Source: Escherichia phage vB_EcoM-UFV09
DNA length: 64,000 nucleotides
Strand: one strand, 5' to 3'
Sequence record: MZ291552.2
In this document: piece by piece, positions 1,184 through 58,320 of the stretch
Numbering within the stretch: position 1 is the stretch's first letter
Layout: every line of letters begins with the position of its first letter
The notes under the pieces: model-generated
The model's input: the letters and a program-made list of their open reading frames with translations, nothing else
Told to the model about the DNA's origin: nothing
Database searches by the model: none
Program-made: the position numbers and the translations under genes

Positions 1184-2467
1184 ATGGCTAAAATCAACGA
1201 ACTTCTGCGCGAATCAACCACAACGAATAGCAACTCAATCGGTCGCCCAAATCTCGTTGCTTTGACTCGCGCTACCACTAAATTAATATATTCTGACATT
1301 GTAGCAACGCAAAGAACTAATCAACCTGTTGCTGCTTTTTATGGTATCAAATACCTTAACCCAGACAACGAATTTACATTTAAAACTGGTGCTACTTATG
1401 CTGGCGAAGCTGGATATGTAGACCGAGAACAAATCACAGAATTAACAGAAGAGTCTAAATTAACTCTCAATAAAGGCGATTTATTCAAATATAATAATAT
1501 CGTTTATAAAGTATTAGAAGATACACCATTTGCTGATATTGAAGAAAGTGATTTAGAATTAGCTCTTCAGATTGCAATTGTTCTTTTAAAGGTTCGTCTA
1601 TTTTCTGACGCAGCGTCAACAAGCAAATTTGAAAGCTCTGATAGTGAAATTGCGGATGCTAGATTCCAGATTAATAAATGGCAAACCGCAGTTAAATCTC
1701 GCAAACTTAAAACTGGTATCACAGTTGAATTAGCACAAGATTTAGAAGCAAACGGATTCGATGCTCCTAATTTCTTAGAAGATTTGCTTGCAACCGAAAT
1801 GGCAGATGAAATCAATAAAGATATTCTGCAGTCTTTGATTACAGTATCAAAACGTTATAAAGTTACAGGAATTACTGATACTGGATTCATTGATTTGAGT
1901 TATGCATCTGCACCTGAAGCTGGTCGTTCATTATACCGAATGGTATGCGAAATGGTTTCACATATCCAGAAAGAATCAACTTATACTGCAACGTTCTGTG
2001 TTGCTTCAGCTCGTGCTGCTGCGATTCTTGCTGCATCAGGTTGGTTAAAACATAAACCAGAAGATGATAAATATCTTTCACAAAATGCCTATGGGTTCTT
2101 AGCTAATGGTTTGCCGCTTTATTGCGATACTAACAGCCCATTAGATTATGTAATCGTTGGCGTAGTAGAAAATATCGGTGAAAAAGAAATTGTTGGATCA
2201 ATTTTCTATGCTCCATATACAGAAGGTCTCGACTTAGATGACCCTGAACATGTAGGTGCATTTAAAGTTGTGGTTGATCCAGAAAGCTTACAACCGTCTA
2301 TCGGTTTATTAGTTAGATATGCTTTATCTGCAAATCCTTACACCGTAGCAAAAGATGAAAAAGAAGCAAGAGTAATTGATGGTGGAGACATGGATAAAAT
2401 GGCGGGTCGTTCAGATTTGTCTGTTTTATTAGGTGTTAAGCTACCGAAAATTATCATTGATGAATAA
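1184..2467 (+). CDS. 24: Capsid vertex protein gp24
   Basis: 427-aa ORF, size and sequence as recalled for T4 gp24; directly follows gene 23. Confidence 0.95.
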   Translation: MAKINELLRESTTTNSNSIGRPNLVALTRATTKLIYSDIVATQRTNQPVAAFYGIKYLNPDNEFTFKTGATYAGEAGYVDREQITELTEESKLTLNKGDLFKYNNIVYKVLEDTPFADIEESDLELALQIAIVLLKVRLFSDAASTSKFESSDSEIADARFQINKWQTAVKSRKLKTGITVELAQDLEANGFDAPNFLEDLLATEMADEINKDILQSLITVSKRYKVTGITDTGFIDLSYASAPEAGRSLYRMVCEMVSHIQKESTYTATFCVASARAAAILAASGWLKHKPEDDKYLSQNAYGFLANGLPLYCDTNSPLDYVIVGVVENIGEKEIVGSIFYAPYTEGLDLDDPEHVGAFKVVVDPESLQPSIGLLVRYALSANPYTVAKDEKEARVIDGGDMDKMAGRSDLSVLLGVKLPKIIIDE

Positions 2468-44852: not shown

Positions 44853-47800
44853 ATGGCCGAGATTAAAAGAAAGTTCAGAGCAGAAGACGGTCTGGACGCA
44901 GGTGGTGATAAAATAATCAACGTAGCTTTAGCTGATCGTACCGTAGGAACTGACGGTGTTAACGTTGATTACTTAATTCAAGAAAACACAGTTCAACAAT
45001 ATGATCCAACTCGTGGATATTTAAAAGATTTTGTAATCATTTATGATAACCGCTTTTGGGCTGCTATAAATGATATTCCAAAACCAGCAGGAGCTTTTAA
45101 TAGCGTACGATGGAGAGCGTTACGTACTGATGCAAACTGGACAACTGTTTCGTCAGGACCTTATCAATTAAAATCAGGCGAATCGATTTCAGTTAACACT
45201 GCAGCGGGTAATGACATTACATTTACTTTGCCATCTTCTCCAATTGATGGTGATACTATCGTTCTCCAAGATATTGGAGGAAAACCTGGAGTTAACCAGG
45301 TTTTAATTACAGCTCCGGTACAAAGCATTGTAAACTTTAGAGGTCAACAAGTACGCTCAGTACTAATGACTCATCCAAAATCACAGATAGTTTTAATTTT
45401 TAGTAATCGTCTGTGGCAAATGTATGTTGCTGATTATAGCAGAGAAGCGGCAGTTGTAACGCCAGCGAGTCTTTATCAAGCGCAATCAAACGATTTTATC
45501 GTGCGTAGATTTACTTCTGCTTCAGCAATTAATATTAAACTTCCTAGATTTGCTAATCATGGGGATATTATTAATTTTGTTGATTTAGATAAATTAAATC
45601 CGTTATATCATACTATCGTTACTACATACGATGAAACGACTTCAGTACAAGAAGTTGGAACTCATTCCATTGAAGGCCGTACATCTATTGATGGTTTCTT
45701 AATGTTTGATGATAATGAGAAATTGTGGAGATTATTTGACGGTGATAGTAAAGCGCGTTTACGCATTATAACAACTAATTCAAACATTCGTCCAAATGAA
45801 GAAGTCATGGTATTTGGCGCGAATAATGGAACAACTCAAACGATTGAACTTCAGCTTCCAACTGATATTTCTATCGGTGATACTGTTAAGATTTCCATGA
45901 ATTACATGAGAAAAGGACAAACAGTTAAAATCAAAGCTGCCGGTGAAGATAAAATTGCTTCTTCAGTTCAATTGTTGCAATTTCCAAAACGTTCAGAATA
46001 CCCACCTGAAACTAAATGGGTGACTGTTCAAGAATTAGTTTTTAACGGCGAAACTAATTATGTTCCAGTTTTACAGCTTGCTTATATCGAAGATTCCGAT
46101 GGAAAATATTGGGTTGTACAGCAAAACGTTCCAACAGTTGAAAGAGTAGACTCTTTAAATAATTCTACTAGAGCAAGATTAGGTGTAATTGCATTAGCTA
46201 CACAGGCTCAAGCTAATGCAGATTTAGAAAATTCTCCACAAAAAGAATTGGCAATTACTCCAGAAACGTTAGCTAATCGTACTGCTACAGAAACTCGTAG
46301 AGGTATTGCAAGAATAGCAACAACTGCGCAAGTAAACCAGGATACCACATTCTCTTTTGCAGATGACCTTATCATCACTCCTAAAAAGTTGAATGAAAGA
46401 ACTGCTACAGAAACTCGCAGAGGTGTCGCAGAAATTGCTACGCAGCAGGAAACTAATACAGGTACTGATGATACTACAATCATTACTCCTAAAAAGCTTC
46501 AAGCTCGCCAAGGTTCTGAATCATTATCTGGTATTGTAACTTTTGTATCTACTGCAGGAGCTACTCCAGCTTCTAGCCGCGAATTAAATGGTACGAATGT
46601 TTATAATAAAAACACTAATAACTTAGTTGTTTCACCTAAAGCCTTGGATCAGTATAAAGCTACTCCAACACAGCAAGGTGCGGTAATTTTAGCAGTTGAA
46701 AGTGAAGTAATTGCTGGACAAAGTCAAGAAGGATGGGCAAATGCGGTTGTAACGCCAGAAACGTTACATAAAAAGACATCAACTGATGGAAGAATTGGTT
46801 TAATTGAAATTGCTACTCAAAGTGAAGTTAATACAGGAACTGATTATACTCGTGCAGTCACTCCTAAAACTTTAAATGACCGTAGAGCAACTGAAAGTTT
46901 AAGTGGTATAGCTGAAATTGCTACACAAGTTGAATTCGACGCAGGCGTCGACGATACTCGTATCTCTACACCATTAAAAATTAAAACTAGATTTAATAGT
47001 ACTGATCGTACTTCAATTGCTACACAAGTTGAATTCGACGCAGGCGTCGACGATACTCGTATCTCTACACCATTAAAAATTAAAACTAGATTTAATAGTA
47101 CTGATCGTACTTCTGTTGTTGCTCTATCTGGATTAGTTGAATCAGGAACTCTCTGGGACCATTATACCCTTAATATTCTTGAAGCAAATGAGACACAACG
47201 TGGTACACTTCGTGTGGCTACACAAGTTGAAGCTGCTGCCGGAAAATTAGATAATGTTTTAATAACTCCTAAAAAGCTTTTAGGTACTAAATCTACCGAA
47301 TCGCAAGAAGGTGTTATTAAAGTTGCAACTCAGTCTGAAACTGTGGCTGGAACGTCAGTAAACACTGCTGTATCTCCAAAAAATTTAAAATGGATTGTAC
47401 AGAGTGAACCTACCTGGGCAGCTACTACTGCGATAAGAGGTTTTGTTAAAACTTCATCTGGTTCAATTACATTTGTCGGTAATGATACAGTCGGTTCTAC
47501 CCAAGATTTAGAACTGTATGAGAAAAATAGCTATGCAGTATCACCATATGAATTAAACCGTGTATTAGCAAATTATTTGCCATTAAAAGCAAAAGCTGCA
47601 GATAGTAATTTATTGGATGGTCTAGATTCATCTCAGTTCATTCGTAGGGACATTGCGCAGACGGTTAATGGTTCACTAACCTTAACCCAACAAACGAATC
47701 TGAGTGCCCCTCTTGTATCATCTAGTACTGCTACGTTTGGTGGATCAGTTTCAGCAAATAGTACATTAACTATTTCTAATACTGGAACAGCAACTCGATT

Positions 47801-48821
47801 GATTTTTGAGAAAGGACCTCAAACTGGAACAAACCCAGCCCAAACGATGACTGTTAGAGTGTGGGGAAATCAATTTAGTGGGGAATTAGATACAACACGT
47901 TCTACCGTATTTGAAGTTAGTGATGAAACATCTAGTCATTTTTATTCTCAGCGCAATAAAGCCGGAAATATAACATTTAATATCAACGGTACAGTAACAC
48001 CGATAAATGTTAATGCTTCAGGAACATTGAATGCAAATGGCGTAGCAACATTTGGTAATTCAGTCACTGCAACTGGTGAAATTATTTCTCGAAGCGCAAA
48101 TGCTTTCCGTGCTATTAACGGAAATTATGGTTTCATTGTTCGCAATGATGGATCAGTAACGAATTTTATGCTTACTGCATCGGGTGATCAGACTGGTGGA
48201 TTTAACGGATTACGTCCTTTGGCTATTAATAATGCATCTGGTCAAGTAACGATTGGTGAAAGCTTAATCATCGCCAAAGGTGCTACTATAAATTCTGGTG
48301 GTTTAACTGTTAATTCGAGAATTCGTTCTCAAGGTACTAAAACTTCTGATTTATATACCCGTGCGCCAACATCTGATACTGTAGGATTCTGGTCAATTGA
48401 TATTAATGATTCAGCTACTTATAACCAGTTCCCCGGTTATTTTAAAATGGTTGAAAAAACTAATGAAGTGACTGGACTTCCGTACTTAGAACGTGGCGAA
48501 GAAGTTAAATCTCCTGGTACACTGACACAGTTTGGTAACACACTTGATTCGCTTTACCAAGATTGGATTACTTATCCAACGACACCAGAAGCGCGTACCA
48601 CTCGTTGGACCCGCACATGGCAGAAAACCAAAAATTCTTGGTCAAGTTTTGTTCAGGTATTTGATGGAGGTAACCCTCCTCAACCGTCTGATATCGGTGC
48701 TTTACCATCTGATAATGCTACAATGGGGAATCTTACTATTCGTGATTTCTTACGAATTGGTAATGTTCGCATTATTCCTGACCCAGTGAATAAAACTGTT
48801 AAATTTGAATGGGTTGAATAA
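44853..48821 (+). CDS. 34: Long tail fibre proximal subunit gp34 (1322 aa) with an internal 33-aa tandem duplication
   Basis: Large repeat-rich ORF at the T4 gene 34 position; contains the 99-bp perfect tandem repeat at 46916..47113. Confidence 0.95.
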   Translation: MAEIKRKFRAEDGLDAGGDKIINVALADRTVGTDGVNVDYLIQENTVQQYDPTRGYLKDFVIIYDNRFWAAINDIPKPAGAFNSVRWRALRTDANWTTVSSGPYQLKSGESISVNTAAGNDITFTLPSSPIDGDTIVLQDIGGKPGVNQVLITAPVQSIVNFRGQQVRSVLMTHPKSQIVLIFSNRLWQMYVADYSREAAVVTPASLYQAQSNDFIVRRFTSASAINIKLPRFANHGDIINFVDLDKLNPLYHTIVTTYDETTSVQEVGTHSIEGRTSIDGFLMFDDNEKLWRLFDGDSKARLRIITTNSNIRPNEEVMVFGANNGTTQTIELQLPTDISIGDTVKISMNYMRKGQTVKIKAAGEDKIASSVQLLQFPKRSEYPPETKWVTVQELVFNGETNYVPVLQLAYIEDSDGKYWVVQQNVPTVERVDSLNNSTRARLGVIALATQAQANADLENSPQKELAITPETLANRTATETRRGIARIATTAQVNQDTTFSFADDLIITPKKLNERTATETRRGVAEIATQQETNTGTDDTTIITPKKLQARQGSESLSGIVTFVSTAGATPASSRELNGTNVYNKNTNNLVVSPKALDQYKATPTQQGAVILAVESEVIAGQSQEGWANAVVTPETLHKKTSTDGRIGLIEIATQSEVNTGTDYTRAVTPKTLNDRRATESLSGIAEIATQVEFDAGVDDTRISTPLKIKTRFNSTDRTSIATQVEFDAGVDDTRISTPLKIKTRFNSTDRTSVVALSGLVESGTLWDHYTLNILEANETQRGTLRVATQVEAAAGKLDNVLITPKKLLGTKSTESQEGVIKVATQSETVAGTSVNTAVSPKNLKWIVQSEPTWAATTAIRGFVKTSSGSITFVGNDTVGSTQDLELYEKNSYAVSPYELNRVLANYLPLKAKAADSNLLDGLDSSQFIRRDIAQTVNGSLTLTQQTNLSAPLVSSSTATFGGSVSANSTLTISNTGTATRLIFEKGPQTGTNPAQTMTVRVWGNQFSGELDTTRSTVFEVSDETSSHFYSQRNKAGNITFNINGTVTPINVNASGTLNANGVATFGNSVTATGEIISRSANAFRAINGNYGFIVRNDGSVTNFMLTASGDQTGGFNGLRPLAINNASGQVTIGESLIIAKGATINSGGLTVNSRIRSQGTKTSDLYTRAPTSDTVGFWSIDINDSATYNQFPGYFKMVEKTNEVTGLPYLERGEEVKSPGTLTQFGNTLDSLYQDWITYPTTPEARTTRWTRTWQKTKNSWSSFVQVFDGGNPPQPSDIGALPSDNATMGNLTIRDFLRIGNVRIIPDPVNKTVKFEWVE
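46916..47113 (+). repeat. Perfect 99-bp direct tandem duplication (2 copies), in frame, inside gene 34
   Basis: 46916..47014 is identical to 47015..47113; encodes IATQVEFDAGVDDTRISTPLKIKTRFNSTDRTS twice. Confidence 0.95.
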
Positions 48822-50007: not shown

Positions 50008-50664
50008 ATGGCTGATTTAAAAGTAGGTTCAACAACCGGAGGCTCTGTCATTTGGCATCAAGGAAATTTTCCATTGAATCCAGCCGGTGACGATGTACTC
50101 TATAAATCATTTAAAATATATTCAGAATATAATAAACCACAAGCAACTGATAACGATTTCGTTTCTAAAGCTAATGGTGGTACTTATTTAAATAAAGTAA
50201 TTTTTAATAAAGGAATGACTGTTCCTGGTGCTGGGTCAGGTGACAACGGTATTTTTGCCGGTCCTGGTGATAATGCCACATATGATACTACAAATATGGA
50301 TATTGTTTCATGGTATGGTATCGGCTTTAAATCATCACAAGGAGCAGCAGGTAGAACTGTAGTAATTAACACACGAAACGGAGATATTAGCTCAAAGGGT
50401 GTAATTGAAGCATCACAAATACGCGCAACTTCGTTATCACCAGTAAATAATTATGACCTTACGAGAAAAGATTATGTTGATGGAGCAATAAATATTGTTA
50501 CAACAAATGCAAACTCTAGAGTATTACGCTCTGGAGACACTATGACAGGAAATTTAACTGCGCCAAACCTTTTTTCACAGAATCCTGCATCTCAACCCTC
50601 GCATGTTCCGCGATTTGACCAAATCGTAATTAAGGATTCTGTTCAAGATTTCGGCTATTATTAA
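50008..50664 (+). CDS. 36: Long tail fibre distal connector gp36
   Basis: 218-aa ORF at the T4 gene 36 position. Confidence 0.9.
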   Translation: MADLKVGSTTGGSVIWHQGNFPLNPAGDDVLYKSFKIYSEYNKPQATDNDFVSKANGGTYLNKVIFNKGMTVPGAGSGDNGIFAGPGDNATYDTTNMDIVSWYGIGFKSSQGAAGRTVVINTRNGDISSKGVIEASQIRATSLSPVNNYDLTRKDYVDGAINIVTTNANSRVLRSGDTMTGNLTAPNLFSQNPASQPSHVPRFDQIVIKDSVQDFGYY

Positions 50665-50672
50665 GAGGACTT

Positions 50673-53600
50673 ATGGCTACTTTAAAACAAATACAATTTA
50701 AAAGAAGCAAAACGGCAGGTCAACGTCCAGCTGCTTCAGTATTAGCCGAAGGTGAATTGGCTATAAACTTAAAAGACCGTGTACTTTTTACTAAAGATGA
50801 CCAGGGAAATATTATTGATTTAGGTTTTGCTAAAGGCGGTAGTATTGACGGGAATGTTATTCATAAAGGCAATTATAACCAAACTGGAGATTATACTTTA
50901 AACGGTACATTCACCCAGACTGGTAATTTTAATTTAACCGGTATTGCTCGAGTAACTCGTGATATTATTGCTGCTGGGCAGATTATGACTGAAGGCGGAG
51001 AACTTATTACAAAAAGTTCAGGTACATCACATGTTCGTTTTCATGATTCAGCTGACCGTGAACGCGGTATTATTTTTTCTCCTGCTAATGATGGATTAAC
51101 TACACAAGTAATTAACATCAGAGTTCAAGATTACAAAGCCGGTTCAGAAAATACTTTTTCTTTTAGCGGTAGTGGTCTTTTCACATCGCCGGAAGTTTCT
51201 GCATGGAAATCTATGTCAACCCCCCAGATTTTGACTAACAAAGTCATTACTAATAATAAATCTACGAGTGATTATGACATTTATTCGATGGCAGACAATG
51301 TTCCATTGTCTGAAAGCACTACTGCTATTAATCATCTTCGTGTTATGCGTAATGCAGTTGGTTCTGGTATTTTTCATGAAGTTAAAGATAATGATGGAAT
51401 AACATGGTATAGTGGAGATGGATTAGATGCTTATCTGTGGTCATTTACCTGGAGCGGCGGAATTAAATCAAGTCACTCAATTTCCATCGGTTTAACACCC
51501 GGACCTAAGGATTACTCAATATTAGGACCGTCTAGTATCGCTTTAGGAGATAATGATACTGGATTTAAATGGCATCAAGACGGATATTATTTCAGTGTTA
51601 ACAATGGCACAAAAACGTTTTTATTTAGTCCCAGCGAAACAACTAGCCTAAGAAAATTTGTAGCTGGATATTCTACTAACGGAACCGATTTAACTACTCC
51701 TCCAACTGAAAATTATGCTCTTGCTACTGTAGTGACATACCACGATAATAACGCGTTTGAAGATGGTCAGACTCTTTTAGGATATTATCAAGGCGGTAAT
51801 TATCATCACTATTTCCGCGGTAAAGGTACTACAAACATTAATACTCACGGTGGTTTGTTAGTTACTCCTGGTAATATTGACGTTATTGGTGGTTCTGTTA
51901 ATATCGATGGTAGAAATAATGCTTCTACACTGATGTTTAGAGGTAACACAACTGGTAGTAGTTCAGTTGATAATATGACAATTTCCGTTTGGGGCAATAC
52001 GTTTACTAATCCTAGTGTAGGTAATCGTAAAAACGTCATGGAAATTTCTGATGCAACTAGTTGGATGAGCTATATTCAAAGACTTACAACAGGTGAAGTA
52101 GAAATGAACGTTAACGGTTCATTTGAATCATCTGGTGTTACTGCTGGAAATAGAGGAGTTCACACAACAGGCGAAATTTCATCTGGAGCAGTGAATGCGC
52201 TTCGTATTTGGAACGCAGATTATGGAGCCATTTTTAGACGTTCAGAAGGTAGTCTTCATATTATTCCGACTGCTTATGGTGAAGGCAAAAATGGTGATAT
52301 CGGTCCACTTCGTCCATTTAGTATTGCTTTGGATACTGGTAAGGTTGTTATTCCAGATTTAGAATCAAGTTATAACACGTTTGCTGCAAATGGCTACATT
52401 AAATTTGCTGGTCATGGCGCGGGTGCAGGTGGTTATGATATTCAGTATTCACAAGCTGCTCCTATTTTCCAAGAAATCGATGATGCTGCTGTAAGCAAAT
52501 ATTATCCTATTGTTAAACAGAAGTTTTTAAATGGTAAAGCTGTCTGGTCTTTGGGTACTGAAATTAATTCTGGTACATTTGTTTTACATCATTTGAAAGA
52601 AGATGGTTCACAAGGCCATACATCAAGATTTAATGCTGATGGTACAGTCAATTTCCCCGATAACGTTCAAGTCGGTGGTGGTGAAGCTACTATTGCTCGT
52701 AATGGTAATATTTTCTCAGATATTTGGAAATCGTTTACTTCTGCGGGAGAAACCACAAATATTCGCGATGCAATAGCTACTCGTGTTGCCAAAGAAGGCG
52801 ATACGATGACTGGCAAATTAATCGTTAAAAGAGGCTCTGACGCTATTAACATTGCTGCCGATGAAAATGATTCTTGCTATTTACTTGGAACATCGGGTGG
52901 AGCGAATTCATGGTACATTGGTAAAGGAGGAGCAGATGACACTGCTTCATTTTATAATTTCAAAACTACCGCAGGAATTACTCTTAATAGTGTTGGTGAT
53001 ATTGATTTTAACGTTAAAAATCAAGCTACTGCAGCTTCATTAAATTTTTATCGTTTATATTTAAATGGAAGACAGTGGACAGCTACACAAGGACATGGAT
53101 ATAATAATCAATGGCAAACAGAAGCCCCATTCTTCGTTGACTTTGGCGAATCTGTTCCGAAAGATAGTTATATGCCTATAATTAAAGGAAGAAGCCAAAT
53201 CATTAACGAAGGATATGCCACAAAGGCAGATTTTGGTATTATTCGATTAGGCGGAAATGCTACTTGGGGAAATGCAGTAATTCGTGTTGGTTCTGCAGAA
53301 AGCGGAGATAGCAGTCATCCTAATGCAATATTTGTGTTTCAGGCTAATGGCGATTTTAAAGCTCCGGCTGGCCTTCGTGCTGGTGTTAACTTGGGCGTCG
53401 GCACAATTCCAGTATGGGGCGGAGCATCTATCGCCATCGGTGATGATGATACCGGTTTAGTTCATGGCGGCGATGGTCGAATTAATATGTATGCTAACGC
53501 GCAGCATATTGCATCATGGGGCACGATGTATCAATCTCATCCAGGCCTTTGGGATTCATATGGAGCTTTTTGGACAGAAGTTGGCAAAGCAATTATTTCT

Positions 53601-53999
53601 CATGGCCATTTAGTTCAGGCGAATGACAGTTATTCCACATATGTACGCGATGTTTATGTCCGCTCTGATATTCGTGTCAAAAAGGACCTAGTTAAATTTG
53701 AAAATGCTTCTGAGAAGCTTTCAAAAATTAACGGTTACACTTATATGCAGAAGCGAGGTCTAGATGAAGAAGGTAATCAAAAATGGGAACCTAACGCAGG
53801 TTTAATTGCTCAAGAAGTTCAAGCTATTTTACCTGAATTAGTTGAAGGCGATCAGGATGGTGAAGCACTACTTCGTTTGAACTACAACGGTGTAATCGGT
53901 TTAAATACAGCTGCAATCAATGAGCATACTGCAGAAATTGCAGAACTTAAGTCAGAGATTGAAGAGCTTAAAAAATTAGTCAAATCATTGTTAAAATAA
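50673..53999 (+). CDS. 37: Long tail fibre distal subunit gp37 with C-terminal intramolecular-chaperone-like domain (T2-type)
   Basis: 1108-aa ORF; C-terminal about 110 aa (SDIRVKKDL...coiled-coil tail) resembles the autoproteolytic chaperone domains of phage fibres and tailspikes. Confidence 0.9.
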
Positions 54000-55797: not shown

Positions 55798-55950
55798 TCA
55801 ATTAGTTGACTTTGTTATAATATCATCAGACGCTTGATTTGTAAACTGGTCTGTGTTATTTTCTTCAAAAATTTTTTCTACGAATTCCTTGAACGACTTA
55901 CGTTCCTGAGCTACATTATGCTCGATTACTTTTTCAAGATTATGACTCAT
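55798..55950 (-). CDS. asiA.5: Small protein asiA.5 (50 aa); contains the asiA early promoter in its coding sequence
   Basis: Hand-translated ORF below the track threshold; ATG overlaps the arn stop (ATGA); GTTTAC-N18-TATTAT at about 55811..55850. Confidence 0.5.
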   Translation of the reverse strand: MSHNLEKVIEHNVAQERKSFKEFVEKIFEENNTDQFTNQASDDIITKSTN

Positions 55951-56225
55951 TCGAAATAATCTTCAATTTCATAATCATGGACGTAAATCATTATAGTTTT
56001 TAATACATCATCAATACTTTTTCCTGGAGCTGGAATTACGTAGAAATATCCTGCTTTTGAGAGGTCTTTATAAGTTCCAATCAGGAAATCATTATTCTCG
56101 AGATGTAGTTCTTCAACTAATTCATTAACAATTGAGTGGTATAAATTTGGTAGAAACTTATGTAGCTTTTCTAGAATATCAATTTTGATTGTGTATTGAA
56201 CCACAGACTGAGAATCAATAATCAT
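55947..56225 (-). CDS. arn: Arn, anti-restriction protein (McrBC inhibitor)
   Basis: 92-aa acidic ORF at the T4 arn position. Confidence 0.75.
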   Translation of the reverse strand: MIIDSQSVVQYTIKIDILEKLHKFLPNLYHSIVNELVEELHLENNDFLIGTYKDLSKAGYFYVIPAPGKSIDDVLKTIMIYVHDYEIEDYFE

Positions 56226-56308: not shown

Positions 56309-56527
56309 TTATGTTTTGCGACTAAATTGTTCATAGTGCTGAATTACCTCTCTTAAACATTTGCATGTGAATGAGAACTTTTTAGCTACACCACATTCAA
56401 ATATATGTTCTCTTAAATCACGTGTATCAGTATATCCCATCTCAACAATAAAATGCCTTATTAGATTTTTATCTTTATCATTGAGAGAATTAAAATAATC
56501 AGATTTTGAATTAATTTCCCTGGCCAA
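56309..56527 (-). CDS. Hypothetical protein (72 aa)
   Basis: ORF in the arn-motA interval. Confidence 0.6.
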   Translation of the reverse strand: MAREINSKSDYFNSLNDKDKNLIRHFIVEMGYTDTRDLREHIFECGVAKKFSFTCKCLREVIQHYEQFSRKT

Positions 56528-56806
56528 ATTGAATCACCTTCAGTTGACGTTTTAATTCTTTTATCATTTCTTCGTTCATCGCAATATAAAGATCGCGTAA
56601 AGCAGGTTTTAGCATTCCATTTACCGGAGAACTAAATGGGCATACATAATCTTTTCCTACAAGCTTTTTGGTAAATTCCATATCACAAAATTTAAATGCT
56701 GGCTCATTCGCATAAATCCCCAATTAGTTGACATCATTTTATTGGCATATTCCAGTGCCTGAATTTGATTCATAATTCCATCAATTTGAAACTTTTTAAT
56801 ATTCAT
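56511..56806 (-). pseudogene. Probable frameshift-split gene: N-terminal ORF 56657..56806 and C-terminal ORF 56511..56723 overlap at a G4 run
   Basis: Upstream ORF has an ATG coupled to the preceding stop (TAATG); downstream ORF has no ATG or Shine-Dalgarno; one extra G at plus 56718..56721 would fuse them into about 98 aa. Confidence 0.4.
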
Positions 56807-57267
56807 TAGTAAAGGTCCTCAGAGTAAAGTTCTTTTTCACTACCACCACGTTCAATACGTACTTGTCCAGCGTAAGTTGCAATAATCATTGCTTCTTCGC
56901 GTGTCCAATAATTACTGTATTGGTCAATAAACCCTTGGTCATCATCACAAACTTGTTGAGTAACTAATTGAGGTTTAACTACATCTAAAACTTCTGCCAT
57001 ATCTTTAGAATAATGACGAGCACCTGGAATAACGAGAGTTCGTCCATCTTTTAATTTAAAACGGTTGGCTGCACAGACAATTCGTCGTTGATACTTTTGG
57101 TTTTCATCCCAATACGCAGTCTGCCAACATATTTCAGGAACTTCATCTAAAACATTTTGTTCTGTATATTCACCGCCGTAAGAAGCTAATTTAGCAGCCA
57201 GACTTTCCGGAGTCTCACGTAACAAAGCTTTATCTAACAGAGCTAAACGTTCTTTAAAAGTTTTCAT
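56806..57267 (-). CDS. Hypothetical protein (153 aa)
   Basis: ORF in the arn-motA interval. Confidence 0.65.
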
Positions 57268-57593
57268 TTAAACCATCCTTTAATACGTTGCCACAAAGTT
57301 TTCTGTTGAGCTTTGTTAACACCAATTGAGCGAATAACCGGTTGAGATTCCTGGAATTCTTTATAATCAGCAAGATAAATTTCGTAAGCTGCATCTGTAA
57401 AGGAACTTATCGCTGCCATAAAATTATTACGAATACCTACTGGAGCATCTTTACTTTCACGAATAATCATGTATTTACCAGTCTTAATCTTTACGATAGT
57501 TCCAAGATAAGCTCCATGATACCAGATGTCCCAACCCTCTTGAGTAGGTTCTGCACAACGACGAAGTTCATTGACAATTTCTAACTTGTTCAT
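57264..57593 (-). CDS. Hypothetical protein (109 aa) immediately downstream of motA
   Basis: ORF overlapping the next gene by 4 nt. Confidence 0.65.
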
Positions 57594-57603
57594 TATTTAT
57601 TCC

Positions 57604-58239
57604 TCACAGTTCAGATGCTACAGTTATTACTGCTTCAATGTTTTCTGCTGAGCGTTTAATGTCAAGATACACATTACCGTTTTTAGCGATTTTACATGAC
57701 ATTCCGATGTCAGTAAATTTCTGAATATGATGTTCCATCATTTTGTATCCAAAAATTCGCATGTTTCCATTATTGTTAATTTCAAAATTGCGAATTCCGT
57801 GAGTGCGTTTTTCTAAAATAGCAAGATAGTTACTGCGGTAAGTTTCAACCTTTTTAAGAACAAATCCATTTTCATCTAAAAGTTTTAACATGAGGTCTTT
57901 ATCTTCTTCCATATCGGAAGTAATTTCGCGAGCTTTACGAGTTGCTCGTTTTTTCAGCAGTTCGGGAGCATTTTCCTGTGCATATAAAGTTGCTGCATTT
58001 GAAATAATATCCTGAGCTTCACCAGTAATGATTAATCCATCACCAGATTTCTCTACCAGGCCTTTTTTAATCAATACCCCAATATTATTATTAACTACTG
58101 CGTTACCTAAATCTGGATGCACCTCACGAACTTCTGCAGCTGTAATGAAATCTTTCTTAGCAATGGTAATTAAAATCGCAGCAGTTTTTTCATTCAGAAC
58201 ATCGTTAGAAGCTTTGATGATGTAAGTTACTTTAGACAT
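57604..58239 (-). CDS. motA: MotA middle-transcription activator
   Basis: 211-aa ORF recognised as T4 MotA. Confidence 0.95.
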   Translation of the reverse strand: MSKVTYIIKASNDVLNEKTAAILITIAKKDFITAAEVREVHPDLGNAVVNNNIGVLIKKGLVEKSGDGLIITGEAQDIISNAATLYAQENAPELLKKRATRKAREITSDMEEDKDLMLKLLDENGFVLKKVETYRSNYLAILEKRTHGIRNFEINNNGNMRIFGYKMMEHHIQKFTDIGMSCKIAKNGNVYLDIKRSAENIEAVITVASEL

Positions 58240-58312: not shown

Positions 58313-58320
58313 TTTTGTGA

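Follow-up and report, generated by a model that had tools for sequence, protein, structure and literature searches.

Between arn.3 and arn.1, on the minus strand of the window (the whole 64,000-nt stretch of phage DNA analysed here), two short open reading frames overlap in different frames beside a run of four G residues. A reading of this DNA made from sequence only had proposed that a frameshift in the G4 homopolymer splits what would be a single gene of about 98 aa, and had offered a genuine slippage mutation, a sequencing error and a programmed frameshift as possible causes. The locus therefore raises the questions of which gene is split, which base is missing and whether the break is a property of the phage. 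Our analysis indicates that the gene is arn.2, and we consider it likely that a recent, genuine deletion of a single A has led to its pseudogenisation in the UFV phage lineage.

The split gene and the missing base

The minus-strand gene order at this locus is motA (57604..58239), arn.4 (57264..57593, 109 aa), arn.3 (56806..57267, 153 aa), the two split ORFs, arn.1 (56309..56440, 132 nt, 43 aa, PF26827), a 39-aa ORF, arn (55947..56225, 92 aa, the inhibitor of McrBC), asiA.1 and asiA, while the holin gene t at the same locus is on the plus strand. The arn transcript begins with arn.4 and ends with arn, and arn.4, arn.3, arn.1 and arn are all intact. The same order is found in annotated T4, RB51, Sf21 and KIT03, and the split ORFs occupy the slot of arn.2 between arn.3 and arn.1, on the strand of motA and asiA, in the synteny t/asiA/asiA.1/arn/.../arn.2/arn.3/arn.4/motA.

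The upstream ORF (56657..56806, minus strand) was correctly described in the sequence-only reading as 49 codons long, with an ATG that overlaps the preceding stop and an end near 56657. Its ATG (56804..56806) is translationally coupled to arn.3, whose stop it overlaps, through a TAATG junction, and its 49 aa comprise 30 native Arn.2 residues followed by 19 out-of-frame residues (FMRMSQHLNFVIWNLPKSL) before a TAG at 56657..56659. The downstream ORF (56511..56723, minus strand, 70 aa) is a mechanical ORF that opens at TTG 56723, runs into GGGG at 56718..56721 and is read in a frame shifted by -1 from that of the upstream ORF. It lacks a Shine-Dalgarno (SD) sequence, as had been noted; the accompanying claim that it has no ATG does not hold, as an in-frame ATG at 56681, equivalent to Met43 of the intact protein, would give a 56-aa product. 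This 56-aa CDS is the one called from ATG 56681 in the GenBank annotation of the sibling genomes, and the upstream fragment is annotated in UFV05 as a separate hypothetical protein.

In Sf21, RB51, KIT03 and T4, the same interval is a single 297-nt ORF, arn.2, encoding 98 aa. The orthologue in the window (T4p259; Phage_T4_Y16C / PHROG 1844) spans 56511..56806 on the minus strand and is 296 nt long. In an alignment that took in Sf21, RB51 and UFV05, the relatives read TGGGGAATTT and the window reads TGGGGATTT, with a lesion junction of GGGGAATTT in orthologues vs GGGGATTT in the window. What is missing is an A from the AA dinucleotide directly 3' of the G4 run (GGGGAA to GGGGA), at codons 30/31; the lesion site thus occupies 56717..56721 (minus strand), with GGGG at 56718..56721 and the single surviving A at 56717. 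The proposal that the event took place in the G4 homopolymer is contradicted by this alignment, in which the G run is unchanged, and slippage of the G run is ruled out as the origin of the lesion in the UFV lineage. An added G would indeed fuse the ORFs into about 98 aa, as would any one-base insertion, and since TGG GGG ATT and TGG GGA ATT both encode W-G-I, it would by coincidence give the same protein; the base actually lost is an A.

When one base is put back, the resulting 98-aa sequence matches PHROG 1844 over residues 1-97 (E = 3.8e-51). The label PF26819 (Phage_T4_Y16C) is precomputed on both fragments in a sibling genome. A Pfam scan of restored Arn.2 with an older release that does not contain PF26819 gave no significant match, and PHROGs and the precomputed Pfam labels were used because PF26819 is newer than the scanned copy. 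A protein search returned 18 full-length homologues of 97-99 aa with 70-99% identity. Judged by the match of the restored sequence to PHROG 1844 and to T4 arn.2, the split arrangement is not a chance ORF pattern, and the core proposal of one gene of about 98 aa divided by a single-base frameshift is borne out by the agreement of alignment, restored ORF and T4 annotation. A member of the family would be expected to have an uninterrupted ORF of about 93-103 codons. The window has instead ORFs of 49 aa and 70 aa (56 aa from the ATG) separated by a 1-nt deletion, and UFV-type arn.2 was for this reason filed as a family pseudogene and not as a functional member. Apart from the lost base, arn.2 is identical to that of RB51 over the 308 nt aligned, and because there are no other differences the lesion appears to be very recent.

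Arn.2 belongs to a small family confined to T4-like phages, which has 11 representatives at 50% identity. An alignment of 11 sequences shows N34, K67 and L70 to be invariant and W29 nearly so, and the break falls inside the best-conserved motif, NWGxYTNE. The AlphaFold2 model, a helical hairpin, is confident (pLDDT 89.6) and places helices at residues 3-41, 44-50 and 60-94; in this model, the reading frame is lost at residue 30, within the first long helix, which is thereby separated from its partner helix. A PDB sequence search and Foldseek searches against PDB and BFVD found no match at E <= 0.001 and returned just generic helical hairpins and one uncharacterised T4-like homologue. Assignment of a function from structure was dropped, as there was no significant structural match despite the confident model. 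The literature likewise gives the Arn.2 protein no known function (bioRxiv 10.64898/2026.06.19.733364).

Distribution of intact and broken arn.2

A 71-nt query centred on the lesion matched 482 phage records, only four of which matched at >=99%: vB_EcoM-UFV05, 06, 10 and 11, from Brazilian wastewater. All other records sampled from this search are one base longer than the UFV type. The intact protein, searched by tblastn, has homologues in 940 records across Tevenvirinae; the 80-90% identity band holds exactly 4 records, and a spread sample of the matches contained the gene in a single piece in 59/60 cases, the sole split one being UFV05. The sequence-only reading had allowed that related phages might also carry two separate ORFs here, and its split-gene proposal withstands this comparison, with a single ORF in T4, RB51, Sf21 and KIT03 as well as in the 59 sampled records. 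The window phage is T4-like (Tequatrovirus) and belongs to the Brazilian vB_EcoM-UFV05/06/10/11 lineage.

Outside a perfect 99-bp tandem duplication in gene 34, the window matches UFV10 at 100% identity over 50 kb; as none of the four deposited genomes has this duplication, the window is counted as a fifth assembly. The duplication (46916..47113, plus strand) is in-frame, adds 33 codons to the long-tail-fibre proximal subunit gene (gp34 homologue, 44853..48821) and extends its product to 1322 aa, compared with 1289 aa for the single-copy form in UFV05/06/10/11; it is either a very recent real event or an assembly artefact. The siblings otherwise differ at a handful of positions, with four non-synonymous changes in gp37 (E376G, Q957E, G963S and Y976N), one in MotA and one synonymous change. 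The SNPs that separate the window from its siblings lie at 51760, 53502, 53520 and 53559 in the gp37 homologue (50634..53999) and at 58088 in motA (N to S); they are mostly non-synonymous and cluster in the distal tail-fibre protein, a pattern that suggests host-range or adaptation variants among sibling isolates. The UFV siblings are taken as distinct isolates because they differ by non-synonymous tail-fibre SNPs. If these are real host-range variants and not noise, as their pattern suggests, then the arn.2 deletion would have been inherited by distinct isolates.

The only other indel among the siblings is in an intergenic homopolymer between motA and motA.1 (~58314..58320), which is A8 in UFV05 and A7 in the window and the other siblings. 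In the annotation of KIT03 (NC_054923.1, 30374..31283), polynucleotide kinase (pseT) is 253 aa long and is accompanied by a separate 30-aa ORF, where the window and UFV genomes have an intact gene of ~302 aa; the KIT03 split may be a lesion or a mis-annotation.

Broken arn.2 alleles were also searched for by looking up the exact 56-aa C-terminal product, which returned 13 contigs. Metagenomic contigs among these carry at least five further independent arn.2 lesions in backgrounds 92-95% identical to Sf21: TGG to TGA (W29*, in two runs), G4 to G5 at the G run of the window's lesion site (in two or three runs), insertion of a T at codon 26, GAG to TAA (E35*), and deletion of a T at about codon 38. 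Two of the lesion contigs have a coverage of just ~2.5-2.8x. Further frameshifted Arn.2 products (P0019 and P0023) came from the protein search. Because nonsense codons cannot be homopolymer errors, arn.2 is genuinely lost from time to time in nature. The clustering of lesions in codons 26-38 was considered as a possible mutational hot spot and rejected as an ascertainment effect, since looking up the exact product that starts at Met43 means that recovered lesions must fall between Met25 and Met43. In another T4-like lineage (contigs L011 and L014, from Logan SRR30994259 and SRR28798923, locus ~1374..1671), arn.2 is broken by G4 to G5, and both loci have an additional 51-aa ORF between arn.4 and arn.3.

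One could imagine that loss of the Arn.2 protein is recurrently selected, for instance if the protein is sensed by, or costly amid, host defence, while the arn.2 RNA is kept as a dock for the host small RNA ArcZ that protects the anti-McrBC gene arn. This would fit the tally of at least six independent truncating lesions (the UFV A deletion, W29*, G4 to G5, the T insertion, E35* and the T deletion) and the near invariance of the 3' third of arn.2, synonymous sites included, across all six lesion types. Against it, cultured phages almost always have arn.2 intact and the lesions were ascertained through one exact product, and we consider selected loss doubtful. What the UFV allele and the independent metagenomic lesions do indicate is that Arn.2 is dispensable under some conditions.

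Origin of the split

A genuine mutation is the best supported of the three causes originally offered. Five sibling assemblies that are distinguished by non-synonymous tail-fibre SNPs all carry the lesion, and when 97 KIT03 genes were translated against the window only arn.2 was split over two frames. T-even DNA has modified cytosines. An artefact would mean that the phage truly reads GGGGAA and that the missing A is a systematic error, for example in basecalling beside the modified-cytosine run of the plus strand, repeated in siblings that were processed alike. The carriers do all come from one laboratory and country and possibly from the same run and pipeline, and the lesion abuts a C4/G4 run; a literature search on the UFV05/06/10/11 genomes found only papers on UFV13 and no publication on the sequencing method. 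The signature is nevertheless not that of a homopolymer error: the base was lost from an AA dinucleotide beside G4 and not from a long homopolymer, the loss is reproduced in all five assemblies alongside real-looking SNPs elsewhere, and none of the 96 other genes is frame-split, although the window has 57 stretches of at least four G or C and systematic basecalling trouble would be expected to break more than one gene. Independent natural lesions, nonsense codons among them, also show that such alleles do occur. We therefore regard an artefact as unlikely.

In a further scenario, full-length Arn.2 is regenerated in regulated amounts by a programmed -1 frameshift, or by transcriptional slippage, at UGG_GGA_U. 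In favour of this idea, tRNA-Gly could slip by -1 from GGA to GGG with compatible codon-anticodon pairing, and the outcome would be exactly the wild-type W-G-I-Y, with a product spanning the junction peptide ...STNWGIYANEPAFK... (...NWGIYANE...). The signals expected of such a site are missing. The zero-frame AAU_UGG_GGA_UUU contains no X_XXY_YYZ slippery heptamer, U_UGG_GGA bars P-site re-pairing, and no SD-like stimulator or anti-SD complementarity was found upstream of the junction. The 77 nt downstream hold no stimulatory structure, folding less well than shuffled controls (MFE -7.2 vs a shuffle mean of -10.3 kcal/mol; z = +1.34; 182/200 shuffles fold at least as well). A G4 run is also too short for efficient transcriptional slippage. 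The two-ORF layout is not conserved beyond one clonal lineage (4/482 records, the other 478 having a plain ORF) and so cannot be an evolved signal, and the other broken alleles carry unrelated lesions, some of them stop codons. Programmed recoding, as raised in the sequence-only reading, is thus extremely improbable. Only slightly less remote is a functional split, in which the 49-aa N-terminal peptide and a C-terminal piece, translated from ATG 56681 after reinitiation or back-scanning, would work as two separate polypeptides, or in which activity would reside in the last 56 aa alone. Termination-reinitiation is conceivable, as this ATG sits 22 nt upstream of the stop of the first ORF, and the 56-aa frame is kept in all recovered broken alleles, though the look-up method dictates that. 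Neither downstream start is preceded by an SD sequence, the anti-SD duplex energies being -0.2 kcal/mol at TTG 56723 and +1.2 kcal/mol at ATG 56681, compared with -5.8 to -9.0 kcal/mol for most accepted starts of the operon and -3.5 for arn.1. The predicted hairpin packs two long helices against each other, and with the break the first piece would lose the invariant residue N34 together with a quarter of helix 1. One ORF is kept in nearly all sampled cultured relatives, and the allele, with no other change from RB51, is too recent to have been shaped by selection. We consider a functional split very unlikely.

The genuine A deletion is thus our preferred account, and the following course of events is proposed. 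The common ancestor of the UFV lineage would have lost one A of GGGGAA in the accessory gene arn.2. The deletion shifts the remaining two thirds of the gene into the -1 frame, the original frame from the arn.3-coupled ATG meets its TAG after 49 codons, and the remaining 68 codons of arn.2 have no ribosome-binding site of their own. Full-length Arn.2, the predicted 98-aa helical hairpin, would then no longer be made, and it is on this basis that arn.2 is called a recent pseudogene. At most, low-level traces of product might arise from a spontaneous -1 slip on G_GGA, which would give the wild-type sequence, or from weak reinitiation at Met43. From the break in the most conserved motif, the cut through the modelled helix 3-41 and the lack of an SD sequence downstream, we infer that Arn.2 function is lost. 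The event is pseudogenisation of an ordinary kind, affecting an accessory gene that is known and conserved yet dispensable. It bears mainly on annotation: the UFV05/06/10/11 records, and the window likewise, should show a single arn.2 pseudogene in place of two "hypothetical proteins".

RNA elements of arn.2 and comparison with known systems

In T2, the host small RNA ArcZ is reported in a 2026 preprint to pair with positions +285..+294 of arn.2 and to shield the arn.4-arn.3-arn.2-arn.1-arn transcript from RNase E, which helps the anti-McrBC protein Arn to be expressed; cleavage is placed at a putative RNase E site, GcAUU, that lies in a 70-nt spacer, 11 nt upstream of arn.1 (bioRxiv 10.64898/2026.06.19.733364). 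The corresponding site in the window, CCAGGGAAAT (56514..56523, minus strand; +285..+294 of intact arn.2), matches the reverse complement of E. coli K-12 ArcZ nt 65-74 at every position and occurs once in the 1647-nt operon mRNA. GCATT at 56452..56456, 11 nt upstream of the arn.1 ATG, is unchanged from the T2 description, as is the 70-nt arn.2-arn.1 spacer (56441..56510, minus strand) in which it lies. An RNAduplex run of full ArcZ against 171 nt of the mRNA gave meaningless long-range structure no better than shuffles, and only the exact 10-nt complement was used. The stretch 56441..56527 (minus strand), which includes the spacer, is open in the arn.1 frame from TTG 56527, creating a mechanical 72-aa ORF (56309..56527) that overlaps the ArcZ site and the RNase E motif. 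This long form is used by one metagenomic gene call (L016), and the extension is probably due to chance in AT-rich sequence.

Among eight distinct arn.2 sequences, synonymous differences per codon per sequence fall from 0.15-0.17 in codons 1-70 to 0.05 in codons 71-99, which in this small sample fits a constraint at the RNA level on the 3' end of the gene. With no change in the ArcZ site, the spacer or the RNase E motif, arn.2 probably keeps its RNA role in the UFV lineage, with ArcZ docking at the 3' end. The premature stop leaves the final ~145 nt of arn.2 untranslated, the ArcZ site among them, and this could alter access of ArcZ, sensitivity to RNase E, or polarity and expression of arn.1 and arn. 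The UFV allele would amount to a natural knock-out of the Arn.2 protein with the ArcZ site, spacer and RNase E motif intact. With the protein lost and the RNA elements retained, the UFV lineage could help to separate the function of the Arn.2 protein from that of its RNA in protecting the arn transcript.

The locus can be set beside several known systems. It shares with T4/T2 arn.2 (T4p259, NP_049870; PF26819; PHROG 1844) the slot between arn.3 and arn.1 and the TAATG coupling to arn.3, and the restored protein is 97-100% identical to Arn.2 of the T4 group; unlike in T4 and T2, the frame is broken after codon 30 and the 98-aa product is not encoded by one ORF. As with the Streisinger-type slippage behind the classical rII frameshifts of T4, one base has been lost from a short run (AA), here beside GGGG, in a non-essential gene and with clonal inheritance, and by this analogy slippage is a plausible origin of the A loss, the run being just two bases long. 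The overlapping ORFs, with the second in the -1 frame, recall E. coli dnaX (A_AAA_AAG with an upstream SD and a downstream hairpin), and a Gly codon could re-pair at -1; in contrast to dnaX-type sites, the arn.2 junction has no slippery heptamer, stimulators or conservation. With the ArcZ-protected arn transcript of T2, the window has in common the 10-nt ArcZ complement, the 70-nt spacer and GCAUU, a likeness seen here at the level of sequence, and it differs in that its ArcZ site lies ~135-145 nt past the premature stop and would be outside any translated ORF unless ribosomes reinitiate.
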